Source of the DNA: a virus
IMG/VR virus record: IMGVR_UViG_3300021420_000014
DNA: 64,000 bases
Strand: one strand, 5' to 3'
The notes beneath the pieces are model-generated. The model saw nothing but the letters and a program-made list of their open reading frames with translations. It searched no databases and was not told where the DNA came from. Shown here in pieces: positions 1-63,917 of this stretch; position 1 is the stretch's first letter, and each line of letters opens with the position of its first letter. The translations under genes were made by a program, and so were the position numbers.

Positions 1-54
1 GCGCGGTTGTGCCGGGCAAGGCTAGGCGGGGTTCGGCACGGCATGGTTTGGGTG
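1..54 (+). repeat. GGY-NN period-5 tract (putative guide-like ncRNA, 5' part outside window)
   Basis: ggtTG tgcCG ggcAA ggcTA ggcGG ggtTC ggcAC ggcAT ggtTT gggTG, running into a terminator. Confidence 0.75.
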
Positions 55-21886: not shown

Positions 21887-22840
21887 ATGAGCCAATCCAA
21901 AATAGATTTTCCTCAACCCTTGACGGAACGGTACAGGCCCAAGCGAGTTGCAGACTTTATCGGCCTCATCAAACCCAAAAAGATCATGGAAGCATTCGTA
22001 CATAGGCCATTCGATGCTGCTTTCTTATTTGTTGGGCAGTCGGGCGTAGGGAAAACCACGTTCGCCATGGCCGTCGCCAACCAAATTCAGGCGGAAACAC
22101 ATTTAATCCCGTCACGATCTTGCGATCTAGAAATGGTCGAGACTGTCACGAGGATGTGCTATTTCGCCGCATTTAATTTTACAACAGGCAAACCAGCGGC
22201 TTGGCACGCAGTAATCTGTGATGAAGCAGATCAAATCACTAATGCCGCTCAACAGGCCTTCCTGTCAAAGCTGGATGCAACAGCCAAACCACCTAGCACG
22301 GTGTTCTTTTTTACTTGCAATAGCACGGCAACTTTAGAAGATCGGTTCCTCTCTCGCTGCCGCATATTGCCATTTGAGCGCGACACACTTGAAGGTGAAA
22401 TAGAGCATTATCTACGGCGAATTTACAAGAAGGAAGGTGGACGACATCCACTAGATTTTGAGGCCATAGCAAAGGCTTCATCTTACAATGTGCGCGACGC
22501 ACTAAATAAGATAGAAATGGAACTGATGATTGGTACTGATCGAGACGATCTGCCTTCGGAGGATATTAAGATCGTCGAAAATCATACTCATTCATGCCCG
22601 AAATGCCACCAGGGATACAAGCATAACGACCCACTTTGTGAATTGCCTTTTAGGCATATTTGCGAGCCGTGCGGTGGAGCAAAGACGATCGGAACTCTTA
22701 GGGCACAAAAGGCCTGGACGACAATTAGGAAGAACATAGCTGAAGAAATTGAGCGTGAGAAAGGGGCCAAGCCATGCCGTACCTTGCCCAACCGCTCCTT
22801 GCCGCGCCGCACCCGGGCACGCCTGACCCCAACAAGCTAA
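21887..22840 (+). CDS. clamp-loader-like AAA+ ATPase (DnaX/RFC-like) with Zn finger
   Basis: LTERYRP, GQSGVGKTT, ICDEAD, SRC motif, RDALN. Confidence 0.85.
   Translation: MSQSKIDFPQPLTERYRPKRVADFIGLIKPKKIMEAFVHRPFDAAFLFVGQSGVGKTTFAMAVANQIQAETHLIPSRSCDLEMVETVTRMCYFAAFNFTTGKPAAWHAVICDEADQITNAAQQAFLSKLDATAKPPSTVFFFTCNSTATLEDRFLSRCRILPFERDTLEGEIEHYLRRIYKKEGGRHPLDFEAIAKASSYNVRDALNKIEMELMIGTDRDDLPSEDIKIVENHTHSCPKCHQGYKHNDPLCELPFRHICEPCGGAKTIGTLRAQKAWTTIRKNIAEEIEREKGAKPCRTLPNRSLPRRTRARLTPTS
22764..22828 (-). repeat. GGY-NN period-5 tract (13 units)
   Basis: ggtCA ggcGT gccCG ggtGC ggcGC ggcAA ggaGC ggtTG ggcAA ggtAC ggcAT ggcTT ggcCC. Confidence 0.8.
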
Positions 22841-23055
22841 GGATATCACATACCTTGGGAGGCATGATATAGTTATGGCAATGACTCTATCGATCACTGC
22901 ATATAAAAAATGGGAAGTGGACACAGTCGTTAAGTTCAACGACAGCCCGCGGCATCTTGCGCTGATGGCCTTCGCTATGACCCTTTCCCCTTCGCAGAGG
23001 ATCTGGTTCGCGATATGGCTCGCCGAACTGAATATCAAAATGATCAAGCGGGCAC

Positions 23056-24684
23056 ATGAGTAAAGCTGAAGTATTGGCAGCCGATTTATTTTGCGGCGGT
23101 GGAGGCACGTCTACCGGACTTGCCCAGGCATGTCTTTTGCTGAATCGCAAACTGAAACTGTTGGCAATCAACCATTGGGACGTCGCCATCGACACCCATT
23201 CGACCAATCATCCATTAGCCAAGCACCTGTGCCAATCCATAGATAACGTAGAACCACGCAAAGCAGTCCCTGGTGGGCGGCTCCATATTTTGGTGGCCTC
23301 GCCAGAATGCACCCATCACAGTAACGCCCGTGGCGGCAAGCCAATGTCAGAACAAAGCCGTGCCTCGGCTTGGCACATTTTGCGTTGGGCTGAAGCACTC
23401 TATATTGAGAACATCATCATCGAGAACGTCCGCGAATTCCGTACATGGGGGCCGATTGGCGCAAATGGGCGTCCGATCAAGCGGCTCCGCGGTCATCTCT
23501 ATATCCAATTCCTGAATAGCCTTAGGGCTCTAGGTTATAACGTCGAGGATCGCATCCTAAATGCGGCCGACTTCGGAGATCCGACGACACGTGAACGTCT
23601 CTTCATTATTTGCCGGCGAGGCAAACCAGTTTATTGGCCGGAGCCATGTTATGGCCCTCCGAATAAGGTAGCTGGCGGCAGTTTGATCGATAGCAAACTG
23701 CAACCCTGGCGGACGGCACGCGGAGTCATTGACTGGTCGATCCCAGGCCAAAGCATCTTCACGCGCAAGCGGCCACTGGCCACAAAGACGATTGCTCGAA
23801 TCGCAGCTGGCCTTAGACGATTTGGCGGTGCGAATGCCGAACCGTTCCTAGTCGTGCTCAGAAATCATCAGCATTCCAGGTCGATTGATCAACCACTTCC
23901 CACAGTAACTGGGAGCGGAGCGCATTTCGGACTATGCCAGCCATTCGTGATTGGCCAGCAATCGGGAGCCACGCCGCGTAGCGTAGACGCGCCACTGCCG
24001 ACTATAGCCGCAAAAGGTGCTATTGCGATGGTCGATCCTTTCCTTGTGGCTGTGAATCACGACGGGGAAAAGCGACGCTCGAAGAGCGTGGATGAGCCAT
24101 TGCCGACAGTCACGACCAAGCGCAGCATGGGATTGGTGGAGCCGTTCATCCTTCCGCAATCATCAGAAGGGACGCCGCGATCGGTAGATCGGCCGCTTCA
24201 GACGTTAACAACGACGAGCCGCGGAGTCGCATTGGTCGAGCCATTTCTTCTAAATATCGATCATCAAGGTGCCGATTCACCTTCGGTTAGGCCACTCGAT
24301 GCTCCGGTCCCAACGCAGACAAGCAAGGCCAGGACCTGTCTTGTCGAGCCGTTTATCGCTAAGTTTAACGGCACGGCCAAAGCCAATAGCGTTGATGAAC
24401 CGCTCGATACCGTCACCACCAAAGACCGGTTCGCCTTGGTCACAACCGAGGCTGGCCAGTTCTATGTCGATATTCGTTTCCGGATGTTGCAGCCACATGA
24501 GCTAGCTCGGGCTCAAGGATTTGGCGATTCTTATACGTTTAAGGGCACGCGGGAAGATGTCGTACGGCAGATTGGCAATGCTGTTCCAGTAGCAACCGCT
24601 GCCGCCCTCTGTTCCGCGGTGCTTCAGGATCGCGCCGAGACAAAAGAGAGAAGGAGAGTACTATGTCGAACAAGAATCGCTTGA
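23056..24684 (+). CDS. DNA (cytosine-5) methyltransferase with internal repeats
   Basis: DLFCGGGG, ASPECTHHS, ENV, RERLF, QIGNAVP; repeated RSxDxPLPT..LVEPF units. Confidence 0.92.
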   Translation: MSKAEVLAADLFCGGGGTSTGLAQACLLLNRKLKLLAINHWDVAIDTHSTNHPLAKHLCQSIDNVEPRKAVPGGRLHILVASPECTHHSNARGGKPMSEQSRASAWHILRWAEALYIENIIIENVREFRTWGPIGANGRPIKRLRGHLYIQFLNSLRALGYNVEDRILNAADFGDPTTRERLFIICRRGKPVYWPEPCYGPPNKVAGGSLIDSKLQPWRTARGVIDWSIPGQSIFTRKRPLATKTIARIAAGLRRFGGANAEPFLVVLRNHQHSRSIDQPLPTVTGSGAHFGLCQPFVIGQQSGATPRSVDAPLPTIAAKGAIAMVDPFLVAVNHDGEKRRSKSVDEPLPTVTTKRSMGLVEPFILPQSSEGTPRSVDRPLQTLTTTSRGVALVEPFLLNIDHQGADSPSVRPLDAPVPTQTSKARTCLVEPFIAKFNGTAKANSVDEPLDTVTTKDRFALVTTEAGQFYVDIRFRMLQPHELARAQGFGDSYTFKGTREDVVRQIGNAVPVATAAALCSAVLQDRAETKERRRVLCRTRIA

Positions 24685-25046
24685 AGGCGGCGTCGCCGGC
24701 ACAGATAAAGGAATACTACAAAAAAATTGGTGCCAAAGGCGGCAAGGCGCGCGCCAAGAAATATGACAGTGAGCAAAGATCGAAATGGTCCAGACACGCC
24801 ATGAAGTCCGCGCCGCAATGTCTGAATGCTGTTCCCAAGCGTAAACGCCACTTAATTCGAGAGGCCCTTCTCGAACGCAAGGGCGATCGCACAATTGGGG
24901 AATTGGCTAAAGAGATTGGTTGCAGTCTTTCCTATCTCTCTTATGTGCTTAAAGGCAAACGGCCGCCGGGACCGAAAATTCAACGTTATCTCGGCGCGGA
25001 AACGCTCAAAGCATTAGGACTTGAGCCTCCAGGGAAGGCTGCATGA
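24663..25046 (+). CDS. KGG-motif plus XRE-type HTH protein
   Basis: GAKGGKARAKK; TIGELAKEIGCSLSYLSYVLKGKRPPG. Confidence 0.7.
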   Translation: MSNKNRLKAASPAQIKEYYKKIGAKGGKARAKKYDSEQRSKWSRHAMKSAPQCLNAVPKRKRHLIREALLERKGDRTIGELAKEIGCSLSYLSYVLKGKRPPGPKIQRYLGAETLKALGLEPPGKAA

Positions 25047-39983: not shown

Positions 39984-40057
39984 TGGAGCGTCTGACGGGA
40001 GTTGAACCCGTGCCCCTCGGACTAGAAGCCGAGTGCTCTACGCTGAGCTACAGACGC
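39984..40057 (-). tRNA. atypical tRNA with 8-nt anticodon loop CUUCUAGU
   Basis: GCGTCTG/CAGACGC acceptor, GCTC/GAGC D-stem, CTCGG/CCGAG anticodon stem, ACGGG-TTCAACT-CCCGT T-arm, T-CCA end. Confidence 0.85.
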
Positions 40058-40521
40058 TCTGAAAGTGGCGCAGGGGCTCGGATTGAACCGTAGTCGTCGA
40101 TATCAGGCGACGCCCCTGCATTGGCGCGCCCGGCGAGATTCGAACTCGCTCCGTCTGCTTTAGGGGCAGCCGTGCTTGCCGTTGTCACTACGGGCGCGCG
40201 GTAAACTCGATAGCACTGCAACAGCTCGCGCTCGGGCGAATCTGCATCGAGCGGTGCGGTTGCAATGGCAGTCAATCCGAAATCGTGATCAGGTTCGTAC
40301 CATGGATAGTGAGGGATTCCGTGTGCTTGAAGCTTTCGCAATACGCGCTCAAGTGCTCGGACGTTCGGCATCCCGATAGCAACGAGATTCGGCGTGCCTG
40401 GATCGCCACGGAGTTGCGCAAGCTTGAAGCTTGAGTGGTTAGTTTGTACGAGAATGTGTTCAAAAGCAGGAAGGTCGGTCCGGAAGAACAAATAACGGTA
40501 TTGCTCTTGTACCTATGTCAT
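40048..40521 (-). CDS. Pth2-like peptidyl-tRNA hydrolase with in-frame TAG at codon 3
   Basis: MT*VQEQYRYLFFRTDL..QTNH..LVAI..WYEPD..GLTAIATAP. Confidence 0.7.
40066..40119 (-). ncRNA. D-armless tRNA-like RNA (54 nt)
   Basis: GCAGGGG/CCCCTGC-G-CCA, GTCGCC-TGATATC-GACGAC hairpin, CGG-TTCAAT-CCG T-like arm. Confidence 0.7.
40122..40197 (-). tRNA. putative amber suppressor tRNA (anticodon CUA)
   Basis: GCGCCCG/CGGGCGC-G-CCA; CTGC-CCCTAAA-GCAG with central CTA at 40163-40161; GCGAG-TTCGAAT-CTCGC. Confidence 0.85.
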
Positions 40522-53210: not shown

Positions 53211-53211
53211 A

Positions 53212-53937
53212 ATGGCTACGGCAGCAACAGCAAAGAAACTGGCTCCAAAAGTAGTCGCTGGAGGTAAACCAATCGAAGTCGTGCGACCCAATATGGCCTA
53301 TTTGTTCGCGGCCATCGAAGGTACCGCTCCGCTATTACAGAATCCCAAGACCAAACAATATCTAGACAGCATGATTGCGTCAGGCGAGGGAAAGGCGCAG
53401 GCAGCAAAAACTATCAAGAATCCCGAGGATGAATTTATCGCGCGCCTGAAACAGACCAAAGAAGAAATTGGATTAGTCCCCGTCGAAGCATTCACTGGTC
53501 GGCGTGGTCTATTTCCGACTGCTGCTAGGCTCGCTAGACTCAAGAAGATTTCGTCAACCACAGTGCTCGCCGGCGTCAAGGTGATTCCGGACGTCATGCT
53601 GGAATTTCAGGACGGCCTGCGCGGCTATCTTTTGATTCGCGGCGGATCAAAGCCGATCAATGACAAACACATTGCCGATATTGAGAAAGCCCCTGGCAAA
53701 CGAGTGCCCGTCCCAATCTATCGGCCGCGTTACAACCAATGGGGTCTTGAGCTGCGGATTAAATATTGGCCTACCTTGGTCAGCCTTTCCAATCTGATGT
53801 CGCTTCTCGCCACGATGGGCGAAGTGGGCGTTGGCTCATGGCGTCCAGAAAACGGCGGAATGTTCGGGACCTTCCAACTTCTGAACGCCGCAGAAGTAGG
53901 CGAAGCCATCGGCGCTGCTTGGCAAACGGAAAAATAG
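53212..53937 (+). CDS. RAMP/Cas7-like RNA-binding protein
   Basis: IEGTAPLL first strand, VP..AF, YRPRY..W.LELRI.Y, C-terminal G-rich loop GVGSWRPENGGMFGTF; GGGAGAATC RBS. Confidence 0.75.
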   Translation: MATAATAKKLAPKVVAGGKPIEVVRPNMAYLFAAIEGTAPLLQNPKTKQYLDSMIASGEGKAQAAKTIKNPEDEFIARLKQTKEEIGLVPVEAFTGRRGLFPTAARLARLKKISSTTVLAGVKVIPDVMLEFQDGLRGYLLIRGGSKPINDKHIADIEKAPGKRVPVPIYRPRYNQWGLELRIKYWPTLVSLSNLMSLLATMGEVGVGSWRPENGGMFGTFQLLNAAEVGEAIGAAWQTEK

Positions 53938-53940
53938 TTT

Positions 53941-54812
53941 CATAGCAAAGCGAAGCCGAGTCATGCCGTGCGAAGCCGTGCCTGGAAATAGCTTAGTGCG
54001 GCTCGGCCAAGCTTTGACAAGACAAGCGAAGAGTTGCAAATCAAACCCGAACCAAGGCCCTGAGAAGATGCGTCTAGATTAGCGGAGCGGCGCAAAGATA
54101 AGAGAAGCCGAGATTGCCGTTGATTAGTGAAGCGAGGCAAATCGAACGCTGATCTCTGCGGAGCCAAGCTATGAATAGCCATGCGCCGCCCAGCAACGAC
54201 CGGCCTGACGGAGCGGACCGTGGCATAGCTTAGCAAAGCCCGGAACAGCTGTGCTGAGCCGAAGCCGAACGAGTAGCGAAGCGAAGCGGTGCATGACAAT
54301 GCGCGGAGCCGAGAAGGCATAGCGCAGCGCATCGAACCGAACACGAAGATGAGAGAAGCGGAGCCGAGTGAAGCGGAGAGAAGTAAAGACAGGATAAGCT
54401 GAGCCTGGACCTGCGGAGCAGAATCAAACTCACGCCGCATTGACAATTACGGCTAACTCGTACCGTAGCCATGCTGAGCTGTGCGAAGCACTGCAGGGCT
54501 TAGAAAAACACAGCGGAGACGAGCATGACAAATAGAACTCGTACCTTGCGTAGCAGCGAGAGACCAAGAGGAGAACAGCGGCGCAAAGAACGGAACGGCT
54601 TGACAGCGCCGTGCGGTGCCTGCCGCAGATAAGCCAAGCGAACACCTAAGCGTAGCGATGCCCAGAGGAGTTTGGAGACGCGAAGTCGAGCGAAGAGAAG
54701 CCCGGACAACCAATCCGAACCGAACTATAAGCGTAGCGAGGCCAAGATTAGAAACGCGAAGAAGGACGAAGCGATGCCCTGACAAGAGAGTCCGAAGCAA
54801 ACACGGAGCGTT
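53941..54812 (+). repeat. AGC-NN period-5 array 1 (putative guide RNAs)
   Basis: agcAA agcGA agcCG agtCA tgcCG tgcGA agcCG ... over about 870 nt with periodic register breaks. Confidence 0.85.
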
Positions 54813-54815
54813 AAA

Positions 54816-55352
54816 ATGAAAAAGAAGAAACGGTATGTCCCGGTTGATGGCGCACATATTTCTACCGCCGAAGCCAAGAAGGTCGGCTTGGCTGTCGATC
54901 GGCTCATCAGCAAACTCGGCCGGCTGCCCACCACCGCGGAGTTTGCCGTGGCGAGCAGAATCAAAACCAGTCCAGCCTATCCCGTAGTCTTCAAGCGGTT
55001 CCGACAACTGACCGCGAGCGCGTGGGAAAACGCTGCCGCCTACTGCATTCGCAGCGTCGATATCGTTTGGATCGATGGTGCTGGCCGTCAATCGCTGCCG
55101 GAAAAGGCATTTTTCGTTTTGAGTTTGATCGAGGAAGCCAGGATCGACGACGAAAACGGCCACGCAACCATTTATCCAGTCGAGGATGCGCAAAAAAGTC
55201 CGGCCGCGATTGCTGCGCAAGAGTTAGCGATGCGCAGAACCGTGATGGCAGCAGTCGGCGACTTCGCGTCGCTCGCAGGTTTTGCAAAAGCACGCGCTGC
55301 GGCGATTCGAGCGATTGACGATTTAGGCGGAAGGGGCGGTCGCGCGGATTGA
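54816..55352 (+). CDS. accessory protein embedded between arrays
   Basis: GGAG RBS; KVG..VDRL...G.LPT..EF...SR...SPAY; loses the period-5 pattern. Confidence 0.7.
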   Translation: MKKKKRYVPVDGAHISTAEAKKVGLAVDRLISKLGRLPTTAEFAVASRIKTSPAYPVVFKRFRQLTASAWENAAAYCIRSVDIVWIDGAGRQSLPEKAFFVLSLIEEARIDDENGHATIYPVEDAQKSPAAIAAQELAMRRTVMAAVGDFASLAGFAKARAAAIRAIDDLGGRGGRAD

Positions 55353-55362
55353 AAATGATTTT

Positions 55363-55610
55363 CCGAAGCAGCGCACTGCCAAGCGCTGATTGGCTAAGCG
55401 TAGAAAAGCACTGCGCGGTAAACCAAACCAAACTCCATGCGAAGCATAGATTGACGCGGCGATGAGAAGCACAGCGAGGCGATGCGTAGCCCTGAAAGAC
55501 GCGGCAAGTCGAAACGTACTCGGTGCTGTGAGAAGCATGGTGCAGCGATGAGTAGATTAGCCGAGCAGGGATAAGCGAAGAATAGCGTAGTGAAGCGAAC
55601 CGCACTCAGA
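55363..55610 (+). repeat. AGC-NN period-5 array 2
   Basis: agcAT ggtGC agcGA tgaGT agaTT agcCG agcAG ggaTA agcGA agaAT agcGT agtGA agcGA. Confidence 0.8.
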
Positions 55611-55612
55611 GC

Positions 55613-59713: not shown

Positions 59714-59746
59714 ATAGGGCCGCCTAGCAAGCGGCCCTATTTTTTT
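59714..59746 (+). terminator. intrinsic terminator
   Basis: ATAGGGCCGC-ctagcaa-GCGGCCCTAT-TTTTTT. Confidence 0.88.
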
Positions 59747-59750
59747 GTCT

Positions 59751-59807
59751 GGCGATGCGATGGTGTGGTGTGGTGCGGTGCGGTGTGGGTCCGGCTTGGT
59801 ATGGTTC
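59751..59807 (+). repeat. GGY-NN period-5 tract
   Basis: ggtGT ggtGT ggtGC ggtGC ggtGT (g) ggtCC ggcTT ggtAT ggtTC. Confidence 0.6.
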
Positions 59808-60123
59808 CTCATAACTTATGGTATTCGGGATTTCCGCCGACTGGCCTGGAGTCTCGAACTTTTTTTACGATTTTTCGGGTTCTGGAATCTATTGAGAGGT
59901 TAAAAAGTTTTTGCTGAATTTTCGGGATTTAAGGCTTGATTATATGTCGAGGACGAAAGGTTGGTTATTGTGATGGCAGCAGAGAGGGCAAGTACCGTTT
60001 GGGTTGAGAGGGAGATCGTGATAATCGCAGAAGTAAACGAGCTTATGAATTAAGGTGGGTGTTGTCTATTTTGTTTTGGTGAGGAGTACAAGAGTACTTC
60101 TACTACAGAACCCCCAGGCCCCC

Positions 60124-63133: not shown

Positions 63134-63917
63134 AGAACGGCTGGCTGCGCTAGCCAAAGAGAAAGCAAATGGCGACGAGACGAAAATGGCATTTGCGGCC
63201 GTTCTTATTCACAGCTTCACACCAATTATCGAATCCGCTCGCCACGAGGCCGCAGCGGAGATGCAGGAGCTTTGCTCACAACATTTCCCCAAACTGGAAT
63301 GGGATACGGATGGCGATCTATGCCACGCTGAATGTGCTTGTGGGTTCAAACTTTTATTCCACGGAGAGCGTTCTTTCGATTTGATAGAGGATTGGCAAAA
63401 CCATATTCGCTCTCTCGGCCCTCCAGAAGTTCAGGCCGCGATGGAAGCGCACGATGCCAAATTCTTAGTGAAAATTGCAGAATTGGAAAAATGGATACAC
63501 GGCTTCAAGGGGCGCATGATGGACTTTCAGGATCGCGCCATTAAAGCAGAGCAGCGCGAGCAGCAAGCCGCCGCGAACGCGCTGGCGCACTTACTATGGG
63601 CAACTACAACAAAGCACGATGTTCGTACCTGTGCCTGTGTACAGTGTGAAAACGCACGGAATGCAACGAGCGCCGACATCGCTGCCAAGGCTAAAGAGCA
63701 CGACGCCAAGATTAGGCGGGATGCGTCCGAAGCACTAGCGTGGTTGGCAACCGAACTGGAAAAGCGCCGCAGTGTTATGGAAGGCAACGACAATGCCTGG
63801 TGGGAGAAGTACGAGCATTGCCGCGAACTAGCAGGACTGCCTCAATTAACGGCCCAATGTTTTCCAACGAAGCAGACGGGGGGGGGGAAAAGTGAGCAAA
63901 TTAGACGCGAAGTTTGA
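63114..63917 (+). CDS. hypothetical protein
   Basis: AGGAG RBS, 267-aa ORF. Confidence 0.55.
   Translation: MSYAQLKERLAALAKEKANGDETKMAFAAVLIHSFTPIIESARHEAAAEMQELCSQHFPKLEWDTDGDLCHAECACGFKLLFHGERSFDLIEDWQNHIRSLGPPEVQAAMEAHDAKFLVKIAELEKWIHGFKGRMMDFQDRAIKAEQREQQAAANALAHLLWATTTKHDVRTCACVQCENARNATSADIAAKAKEHDAKIRRDASEALAWLATELEKRRSVMEGNDNAWWEKYEHCRELAGLPQLTAQCFPTKQTGGGKSEQIRREV

Follow-up and report, generated by a model that had tools for sequence, protein, structure and literature searches.

A GGY-NN tract antisense to the end of a soil phage clamp-loader gene is a probable solo VIPR guide region, 30 kb from a Vipr of different scaffold grammar

VIPR systems, CRISPR-like RNA-guided silencers of DNA, pair a RAMP protein, Vipr, with vrRNAs that carry an invariable structured tail after 9–16 YNNGG repeats; the NN pairs of the repeats define a double-stranded DNA target with one base skipped per unit, and rival phages and satellites are transcriptionally silenced when Vipr binds (bioRxiv 10.64898/2026.04.26.720920). 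Variants with NNNGG, YNNNG, or NNNNG repeats, with staggered arrays, or with a single vrRNA are also known (10.64898/2026.04.26.720920). By definition, vrRNAs are expressed as small RNAs of ~100 nt and recovered together with Vipr. One Vipr protomer occupies each repeat, with the first G (G1) contacting His17 and Asp177; in the Vipr of Escherichia phage SUSP1, Arg138 and Trp178 read the second G (G2), and a pocket for the pyrimidine at position 3 (Y3) shuts out purines (bioRxiv 10.64898/2026.04.26.720927). Satellites and 346 VIPR-null phages bear "solo" vrRNAs that use Vipr in trans, a solo being defined by the absence of Vipr from the contig or from the surrounding 20 kb (bioRxiv 10.64898/2026.10.15.759431). 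VIPR was first described in 2026, and nearly all tested examples come from enterobacterial and Pseudomonas phages. Here we analyze a 64,000-nucleotide stretch of viral DNA (IMG/VR record IMGVR_UViG_3300021420_000014; hereafter the window), in which a minus-strand tract of pentamers at 22764–22828, of the form GGY-NN (Y, pyrimidine; N, any base), lies antisense to the end of a clamp-loader gene.

Read on the minus strand, 22764–22828 consists of 13 uninterrupted pentamers, all in one register, with the scaffold triplets GGC (seven), GGT (four), GGA (one), and GCC (one). Our recount reproduces the preliminary description of this DNA, in which 13 in-register pentamers, 11 of them beginning with GGC or GGT, had been noticed. 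Column 1 is G in 13 of 13 units and column 2 in 12 of 13, and the NN pairs in columns 4 and 5 are near-random, with 10 distinct dinucleotides among the 13. The published vrRNA caller asks for at least eight units, a cumulative conformity of at least 0.70, at least two fixed positions, and at least two bases per variable position; in our reimplementation, which is not the authors' code, the tract has 13 units and a conformity of 0.85. Its 13 units with hypervariable NN also fall within the 9–16 YNNGG rule. The nearest Vipr gene in the window, whose open reading frame (ORF) is open from 53146 with an ATG at 53212 and ends at 53937, is 30.3 kb away, agreeing with the approximately 30 kb first estimated and exceeding the 20-kb limit for solos. 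The tract is thus an instance of an already known kind of vrRNA, and the initial proposal of a stand-alone guide proves sound in kind, since the tract qualifies as a solo vrRNA under the operational rule in print. We assign a probability of about 0.82 to the tract being the repeat (guide) region of a canonical GGY-NN VIPR vrRNA, 30 kb from the only visible vipr gene; that it arose as a vrRNA, whatever its present state, is very probable.

The periodicity does not depend on a preconceived motif. When 12 units were stacked and their column information summed across the whole window with no motif assumed, the tract scored 4.53 (at 22759–22841) compared with maxima of 2.83–3.35 in 20 block-shuffled windows. 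It is the second-strongest period-5 signal of the window, exceeded only by arrays at 54.3 kb (5.16). Thirteen segments beat every shuffle: positions 1–64, the tract, 59740–59820, and ten within 54055–54790 and 55373–55609. Tracts of RGY-NN (at least 8 of 12 units) number nine in 676 kb, comprising the window and five related phage records, and control triplet classes yielded 0–3 tracts each, except RCY, which is the reverse complement of RGY and hence recovers the identical nine. The tract is therefore genuine, well removed from what chance would produce, and has several period-5 companions in the window. Decay of a pentanucleotide microsatellite, or mere chance, could be proposed, and pentanucleotide repeats do exist in this lineage: a near-perfect TGGTG repeat is found at 59761–59788 and a TGTTC repeat at the syntenic site of one relative. 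Neutral decay, however, would erode all five columns alike, an expectation that the tract contradicts, with G in 13 and 12 of 13 units at columns 1 and 2 and 10 different dinucleotides at columns 4 and 5; together with a score above all 20 shuffles, this makes such an origin highly improbable. A search of the whole window against Rfam at gathering level matched only two tRNAs, and a literature search on period-5 or pentanucleotide repeats in phage returned nothing relevant.

The tract overlaps the end of a plus-strand gene (21887–22840) encoding a 317-aa clamp-loader-like AAA+ ATPase (Pfam AAA and DNA_pol3_delta2; clamp loader in PHROG). The overlap covers codons 293–317 (22763–22837), the final 25 of the ORF, and the odd Pro/Arg tail of the protein is, as had been stated at the outset, the antisense translation of the tract. 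A word-indexed search recovered 368 ATPase homologs, and the best 35 were aligned. A zinc-ribbon-like C-terminal domain is common among them up to a conserved RAxKAW..TIR motif, past which the proteins close in short, mostly Lys-rich tails; variable basic tails of ~8–30 residues are tolerated. None of the 35 has the Pro/Arg tail, and the ATPase of the closest relative (73% identity) terminates one codon ahead of the tract start, which answers the question raised in the preliminary description of whether homologous ATPases end before the tract. Selection for a pentapeptide repeat, P-x-R-x-L, with the nucleotide period as a by-product, would fit a tail of approximately three five-residue units in a family whose members have basic tails. 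This alternative has very little probability, given the absence of the tail from all 35 homologs, the presence of the same grammar in noncoding DNA of the window and its relatives, and the nature of the invariant columns, which are two G on the opposite strand with the rest near random, unlike codon-level selection. A vrRNA tract captured by a neighboring ORF can pass as a protein tail, which constitutes an annotation trap. A separate ATPase homolog in ENA (P0006; 64% identity) carries a 30-residue Arg/Gly-rich tail with Gly at every fifth residue five times, the pattern that a sense-strand GGY-NN tract would encode.

Comparison with the closest relative, G001, places the tract at a rearrangement. 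DNA similarity between the window and G001 stops at 22762 and returns at 24705, with ~75 bases between these breakpoints in G001 versus ~1.94 kb in the window. The insertion relative to G001 (22763–24704, plus strand) contains, besides the tract, a 62-aa ORF that matches no family (22875–23063) and a C5 cytosine methyltransferase gene (23056–24684; Pfam DNA_methylase). The left junction of the insertion falls precisely on the tract, the breakpoint coinciding with the 3′ end of the tract, and because it is the first sequence beyond the breakpoint, the ATPase frame runs on through it. A 60%-identical homolog of the methyltransferase is found elsewhere in a further relative, G004, with no tract beside it; the tract is therefore not a fixed part of a methyltransferase cassette. 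Among 65 loci (322 kb) of relatives of the ATPase gene, a comparable tract adjoins the gene in only one (L002, in relative G002), where it lies upstream of the gene and not in the tail.

Further GGY-type tracts are present in the window and its relatives. A second GGY-NN tract, of at least 10 units and cut by the window edge, occupies 1–85 of the plus strand and is followed by an 11-bp hairpin (56–77) and a run of eight T (78–85); its 3′ flank has a folding z-score of −3.16, and the whole looks like the end of a well-formed solo vrRNA gene. A third (59762–59867, plus strand) has GGTGY-like units of low NN diversity with one 1-nt slip, followed by a hairpin and a run of seven T, and its 3′ flank has a z-score of −2.98. 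The preliminary description had suggested looking for more GGY-NN tracts and for a second RAMP-like gene; these two tracts bear out the first expectation, and no second Vipr gene is found within the window. G002 has four GGY-NN tracts, each preceded by a stop codon and followed by a GC-rich hairpin that stands before the next gene (L105 11620–12290 and 19765–19900; L106 615–780); G003 has one with a near-consensus TTGCCC-17-TATAAT promoter and a terminator hairpin (L101 14345–14454); and G005 has ~30 GGY-NN units adjoining the terminase gene (L083 7900–8080). No Vipr was found in the five related records G001–G005, two of which are complete genomes. Since G002, G003, and G005 carry GGY tracts and no Vipr, effector-less GGY guides are normal in this lineage, in which well-formed solo GGY-NN genes are situated between early genes, for example just 5′ of the Ku and ParB genes of G002. 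At the G001 site (42922–43100) syntenic to window positions 59717–59746, we observed a (TGTTC)n microsatellite and five ACGCGT-centered repeats, ~11 bp apart and iteron-like; at that intergenic site the window has the GGTGY tract instead.

The same grammar is widespread in viral contigs, where an exact scan for nine consecutive GGY-NN units found at least 137 loci, some with kilobase-long arrays. With flanks fetched for 80 loci, tblastn detected a Vipr C terminus directly upstream of the array in 25, a count that leaves out two rows in which misframed queries matched themselves. One 4.3-kb IMG/VR contig (L108) has five sub-arrays of ~13–15 GGC-NN units, parted by a ~58-nt repeat with a hairpin; a Vipr gene precedes the set and a RuvC-like gene follows it. 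In two other loci the interval from vipr to a RusA-like gene is occupied by an array, of 1.5 kb in L184 and 0.7 kb in L127.

The resident effector was identified from its protein. The 263-aa RAMP-like protein of the window (241 aa from the ATG at 53212; plus strand, 53212–53937) corresponds to phrog_4652, a PHROG of unknown function. A HMMER search of 1.84 billion representatives recovered 736 relatives, and a profile built from 57 of them (A2) matched PDB chain 36pp_D, "SUSP1 Vipr protein," with an E-value of 7.2e-18. The AlphaFold (AF2) model of the protein has a pLDDT of 93, and its best Foldseek matches are Cas7, Csm3, and Cmr4 chains (E about 2e-7). The gene at 53212–53937 is thus a vipr gene. 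Pairwise alignment with SUSP1 Vipr shows that the thumb Arg138 (YRP) and the W-R-P of the G-loop (G-x-W-R-P) are kept, and that a Ser aligns with the G1-reading Asp177, giving the G-loop GSWRP. In a six-frame search of the window, this was the one Vipr match (53128–53934, E 4.9e-52), the next best having an E-value of 1.4.

Two plus-strand arrays, ~1.1 kb of period-5 sequence in all, accompany this gene. Array 1 (53938–54815) comprises ~169 units of N-G-(C/A)-NN, mostly AGC, with 14 register slips, and array 2 (55353–55612) comprises ~49 units and abuts the 3′ end of the large terminase gene. Dinucleotides GC and AG show strong five-base spacing in both arrays, out to 30 bases; in array 1 GC–GC spacings of 5 to 30 are counted 46, 38, 31, 32, 34, and 27 times, versus 1–12 at spacings that are not multiples of five. 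With the register tracked, the arrays together hold ~218 units with 17 slips, and G occupies position 2 in 182. In those 182 units position 1 is A in 99, T in 34, G in 25, and C in 24, and position 3 is C in 111, A in 56, T in 13, and G in 2. GGY accounts for 16 of the 182 (14 GGC and 2 GGT) versus 11 of 13 in the tract, so the difference in scaffold from the AGC arrays that had been pointed out beforehand is real. A coding explanation of the AGC arrays, with TAG read as sense, was rejected, as no long plus-strand frame opens. The resident arrays are unusually long and flank a 178-aa ORF of no family (54816–55352, plus strand), which is, by position only, a candidate vipr-accessory gene. Neither this ORF nor the vipr gene has a homolog in G001–G005, and the whole locus therefore looks like a cassette.

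One alternative is that the resident Vipr itself loads the tract, with no second effector needed. In its favor, the resident arrays are permissive at position 1, as the 25 units with G and the 16 GGY units show, and the arrays of another locus (L249), next to a 54%-identical Vipr that likewise has Ser in the G-loop, mix AGC and GGC units. Rejection of GGY by the resident Vipr is accordingly not proven, because both its own arrays and those of L249 accommodate G1. The wider counts point the other way. A recognizable upstream G-loop was found in 19 of the 80 GGY-array loci, with Asp in 11, Glu in 5, Arg in 2, Thr in 1, and Ser in none, so that 16 of 19 are acidic. Conversely, all 15 fetched viral loci with a Ser-type Vipr (G-x-G-S-[WY]-R-P) carry period-5 arrays beside the gene, with consensus scaffolds other than GGY: AGC in two (L249 and L250), AAC in two (L256 and L260), and TT/CTT on the vipr strand in 11 (L251–L255, L257–L259, and L261–L263). 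The low share of GGY units in the resident arrays is a further difficulty, as is position 3, where T occurs in 13 of 182 resident units and GGT makes up 4 of the 13 units of the tract. Loading of the tract by the resident Vipr is therefore a quite improbable explanation. The AAC-NN type keeps no G and lies beyond the NNNGG, YNNNG, and NNNNG forms named in the available preprint text.

If the tract is a working vrRNA guide region, then by the published mechanism its RNA would be bound by one Vipr protomer per pentamer with the GGY bases flipped into the protein, and the 13 NN pairs would pair with double-stranded DNA bearing the same dinucleotides, one base being skipped between them; a rival mobile element bound in this way would be transcriptionally silenced. 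The tract lies on the strand opposite to all its neighbors, at the left breakpoint of the insertion, and the clamp-loader ORF has gained 25 unrelated codons from it. A co-infecting rival, a second gene, or, less likely, the resident Ser-type locus could supply the GGY-reading Vipr. The preliminary description had favored a second, orthogonal effector elsewhere in the genome; published solos borrow Vipr from a co-infecting phage, and a second effector therefore need not lie in this genome.

Several results weigh against a guide of this kind. The tract lacks a structured 3′ tail: its 60-nt minus-strand 3′ flank, which is antisense to a conserved coding part of the ATPase gene, has a folding energy of −2.0 kcal/mol (z +1.19, with 183 of 200 shuffles folding as well). 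By contrast, the GGY tracts co-oriented with neighboring genes (window 1–54 and 59762–59807, the four of G002, and that of G003) have a GC-rich 3′ stem-loop in seven of seven cases, with z-scores of −1.6 to −4.5; the G005 array is without one. The 191-nt minus-strand stretch 22660–22850 folds no better than shuffles (z −0.2), and no minus-strand terminator was found within 300 nt, the nearest being a weak one 310 nt downstream. A sigma-70-like promoter match (TCGATA-18-TATCAT, 22864–22893, minus strand, 9 of 12 positions) lies ~35 nt upstream of the tract, and three promoter matches in 800 nt compare with 0.9 ± 0.9 in shuffles, a weak excess. Minus-strand transcription of the tract would run head-on against a replication gene. 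The six-frame search found no Vipr with an acidic G-loop within the window. A target search under the 1-nt-skip rule gave at best 19 of 26 matching positions (73%) in 1,097,495 nt, compared with the threshold of at least 80% used in the preprints, and 100 shuffled guides in the same search reached best scores of 17 (1 guide), 18 (52), 19 (42), 20 (4), and 21 (1). Two exact 10-unit sub-patterns had no match in viral contigs, in a search that was exact only and so misses mismatched targets. One of them matched twice among genome contigs, in Larsenimonas and in a Clostridia metagenome-assembled genome, and once among metagenome contigs; the three extend to 21, 21, and 22 of 26, come from unrelated bacteria, and are close to the number expected by chance (about 1 per 596 Gb by our own arithmetic). 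In the metagenome match (L248), the skipped base is off the wobble position.

These observations bear most directly on the present state of the tract. The rearrangement that brought in the methyltransferase cassette may have cut a vrRNA gene from its hairpin tail and terminator, leaving a stranded, tail-less remnant at a recombination junction that now serves as harmless ATPase codons. The homology breakpoint at the 3′ end of the tract and the lack of a tail or terminator after it fit this account, as does the ability of ATPase homologs to accommodate variable basic tails. The other counter-oriented tract, at 63777–63816 of G002 just upstream of the same ATPase gene, likewise has no hairpin (z −0.08). 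On the other side, the GGY conformity of the tract is the highest among the lineage tracts (11/13, versus a range of 6/8 to 11/13), which fits either recent stranding or ongoing selection, and because tails vary by VIPR type and staggered arrays exist in some types (10.64898/2026.04.26.720920), a hairpin tail may not be universal. We give the stranded remnant an even chance of describing the tract as it is now. That a putative guide may still be made from the minus strand and loaded by a GGY-reading Vipr is a tentative possibility of somewhat lower probability, and some other present state is improbable.

The G-loop and scaffold counts support, as a pattern in sequence, two putative reading dialects. 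We consider it unlikely, although worth stating, that these form two insulated VIPR dialects in one phage, in which the Ser-G-loop Vipr would read A/N-G-C/A and the GGY-NN solos (the tract, 1–54, and 59762–59807) would be made to redirect or soak up the Asp/Glu-type Vipr of rivals. If this were true, the dialect difference would shield the phage's own system from the solo guides of rivals, and vice versa. A bolder variant would have the plus-strand mRNA copy of the tract sequester, as an antisense sponge, the identical guide of a rival. The association of the G-loop residue (Ser versus Asp/Glu) with the scaffold base offers a simple, testable handle on RNA choice by Vipr, relevant to cross-talk in phage-versus-phage conflict and to the engineering of orthogonal VIPR tools.

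The closest described counterparts are the solo vrRNAs of F5 satellites and VIPR-null SUSP1-like phages, with which the tract shares an array of at least eight GGY-NN units, hypervariable NN pairs, no Vipr within 20 kb, and a Vipr presumed to act in trans. Those solos have a conserved ~40-nt SUSP1-type tail and lie in noncoding DNA, whereas the tract has no structured tail and lies antisense within a gene end; the phage-borne ones are on VIPR-null phages, whereas here the phage itself encodes a Vipr, with arrays of another grammar; and they are from Enterobacteriaceae, whereas the tract belongs to a soil phage lineage. The Type II VIPR of SUSP1 itself (Vipr, vap1, and four vrRNAs; PDB 36pp) has the same repeat grammar, and a Vipr homolog is present in both genomes. 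The tract differs from SUSP1 vrRNAs in lying outside vipr-flanking intergenic DNA and lacking a pseudoknot tail, and the resident arrays differ in being mostly AGC-NN, a relaxed YNNNG-like consensus of the kind mentioned in the preprint, with Ser at the position of Asp177. Read as a solo vrRNA, the tract would indicate that solo GGY-NN guides also circulate in a large soil phage lineage, most members of which have no Vipr gene, and that one phage can hold a Vipr of different scaffold grammar next to canonical solo guides.

Two more distant systems offer partial likenesses. Orphan class 1 CRISPR arrays and their crRNAs similarly place a guide away from its effector genes and involve a RAMP filament that flips bases at a fixed period. 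The tract lacks repeat-spacer structure and adaptation genes, and VIPR differs in its period of 5, with three bases sequestered and two read, and in a target with a 1-nt skip. In the trp leader of Bacillus subtilis, TRAP sites consist of 11 (G/U)AG triplets with 2–3-nt spacers, before a terminator. The five-nucleotide register of 3 + 2 bases is the same, and tracts of this lineage often lie just before a terminator hairpin; the protein associated here, unlike TRAP, is a RAMP. A TRAP-like attenuator array was dropped as a candidate once the adjacent protein was recognized as Vipr, and no TRAP or RNA-ring family was found by Pfam among 97 ORFs of the window. Chi-like motif clusters, two-tier G-quadruplexes, primase-site arrays, and R-loop origins were likewise dropped after the Vipr match.

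Two further features were also observed. In G001 (46299–49049; L066 and L072), the large terminase is an uninterrupted 982-aa frame compared with 599 aa in the window, with ~940 bases inserted between the matching parts, possibly an intein-like or other in-frame insert. The two tRNA genes of the window are adjacent, at 39984–40057 and 40122–40197, both on the minus strand; one has the anticodon CUA, of the amber suppressor type, and the anticodon loop of the other is 8 nt long and is read by ARAGORN as holding the four-base anticodon UCUA. The pair may allow TAG read-through or UAGA quadruplet decoding, and the stop codon of the vipr ORF is TAG.

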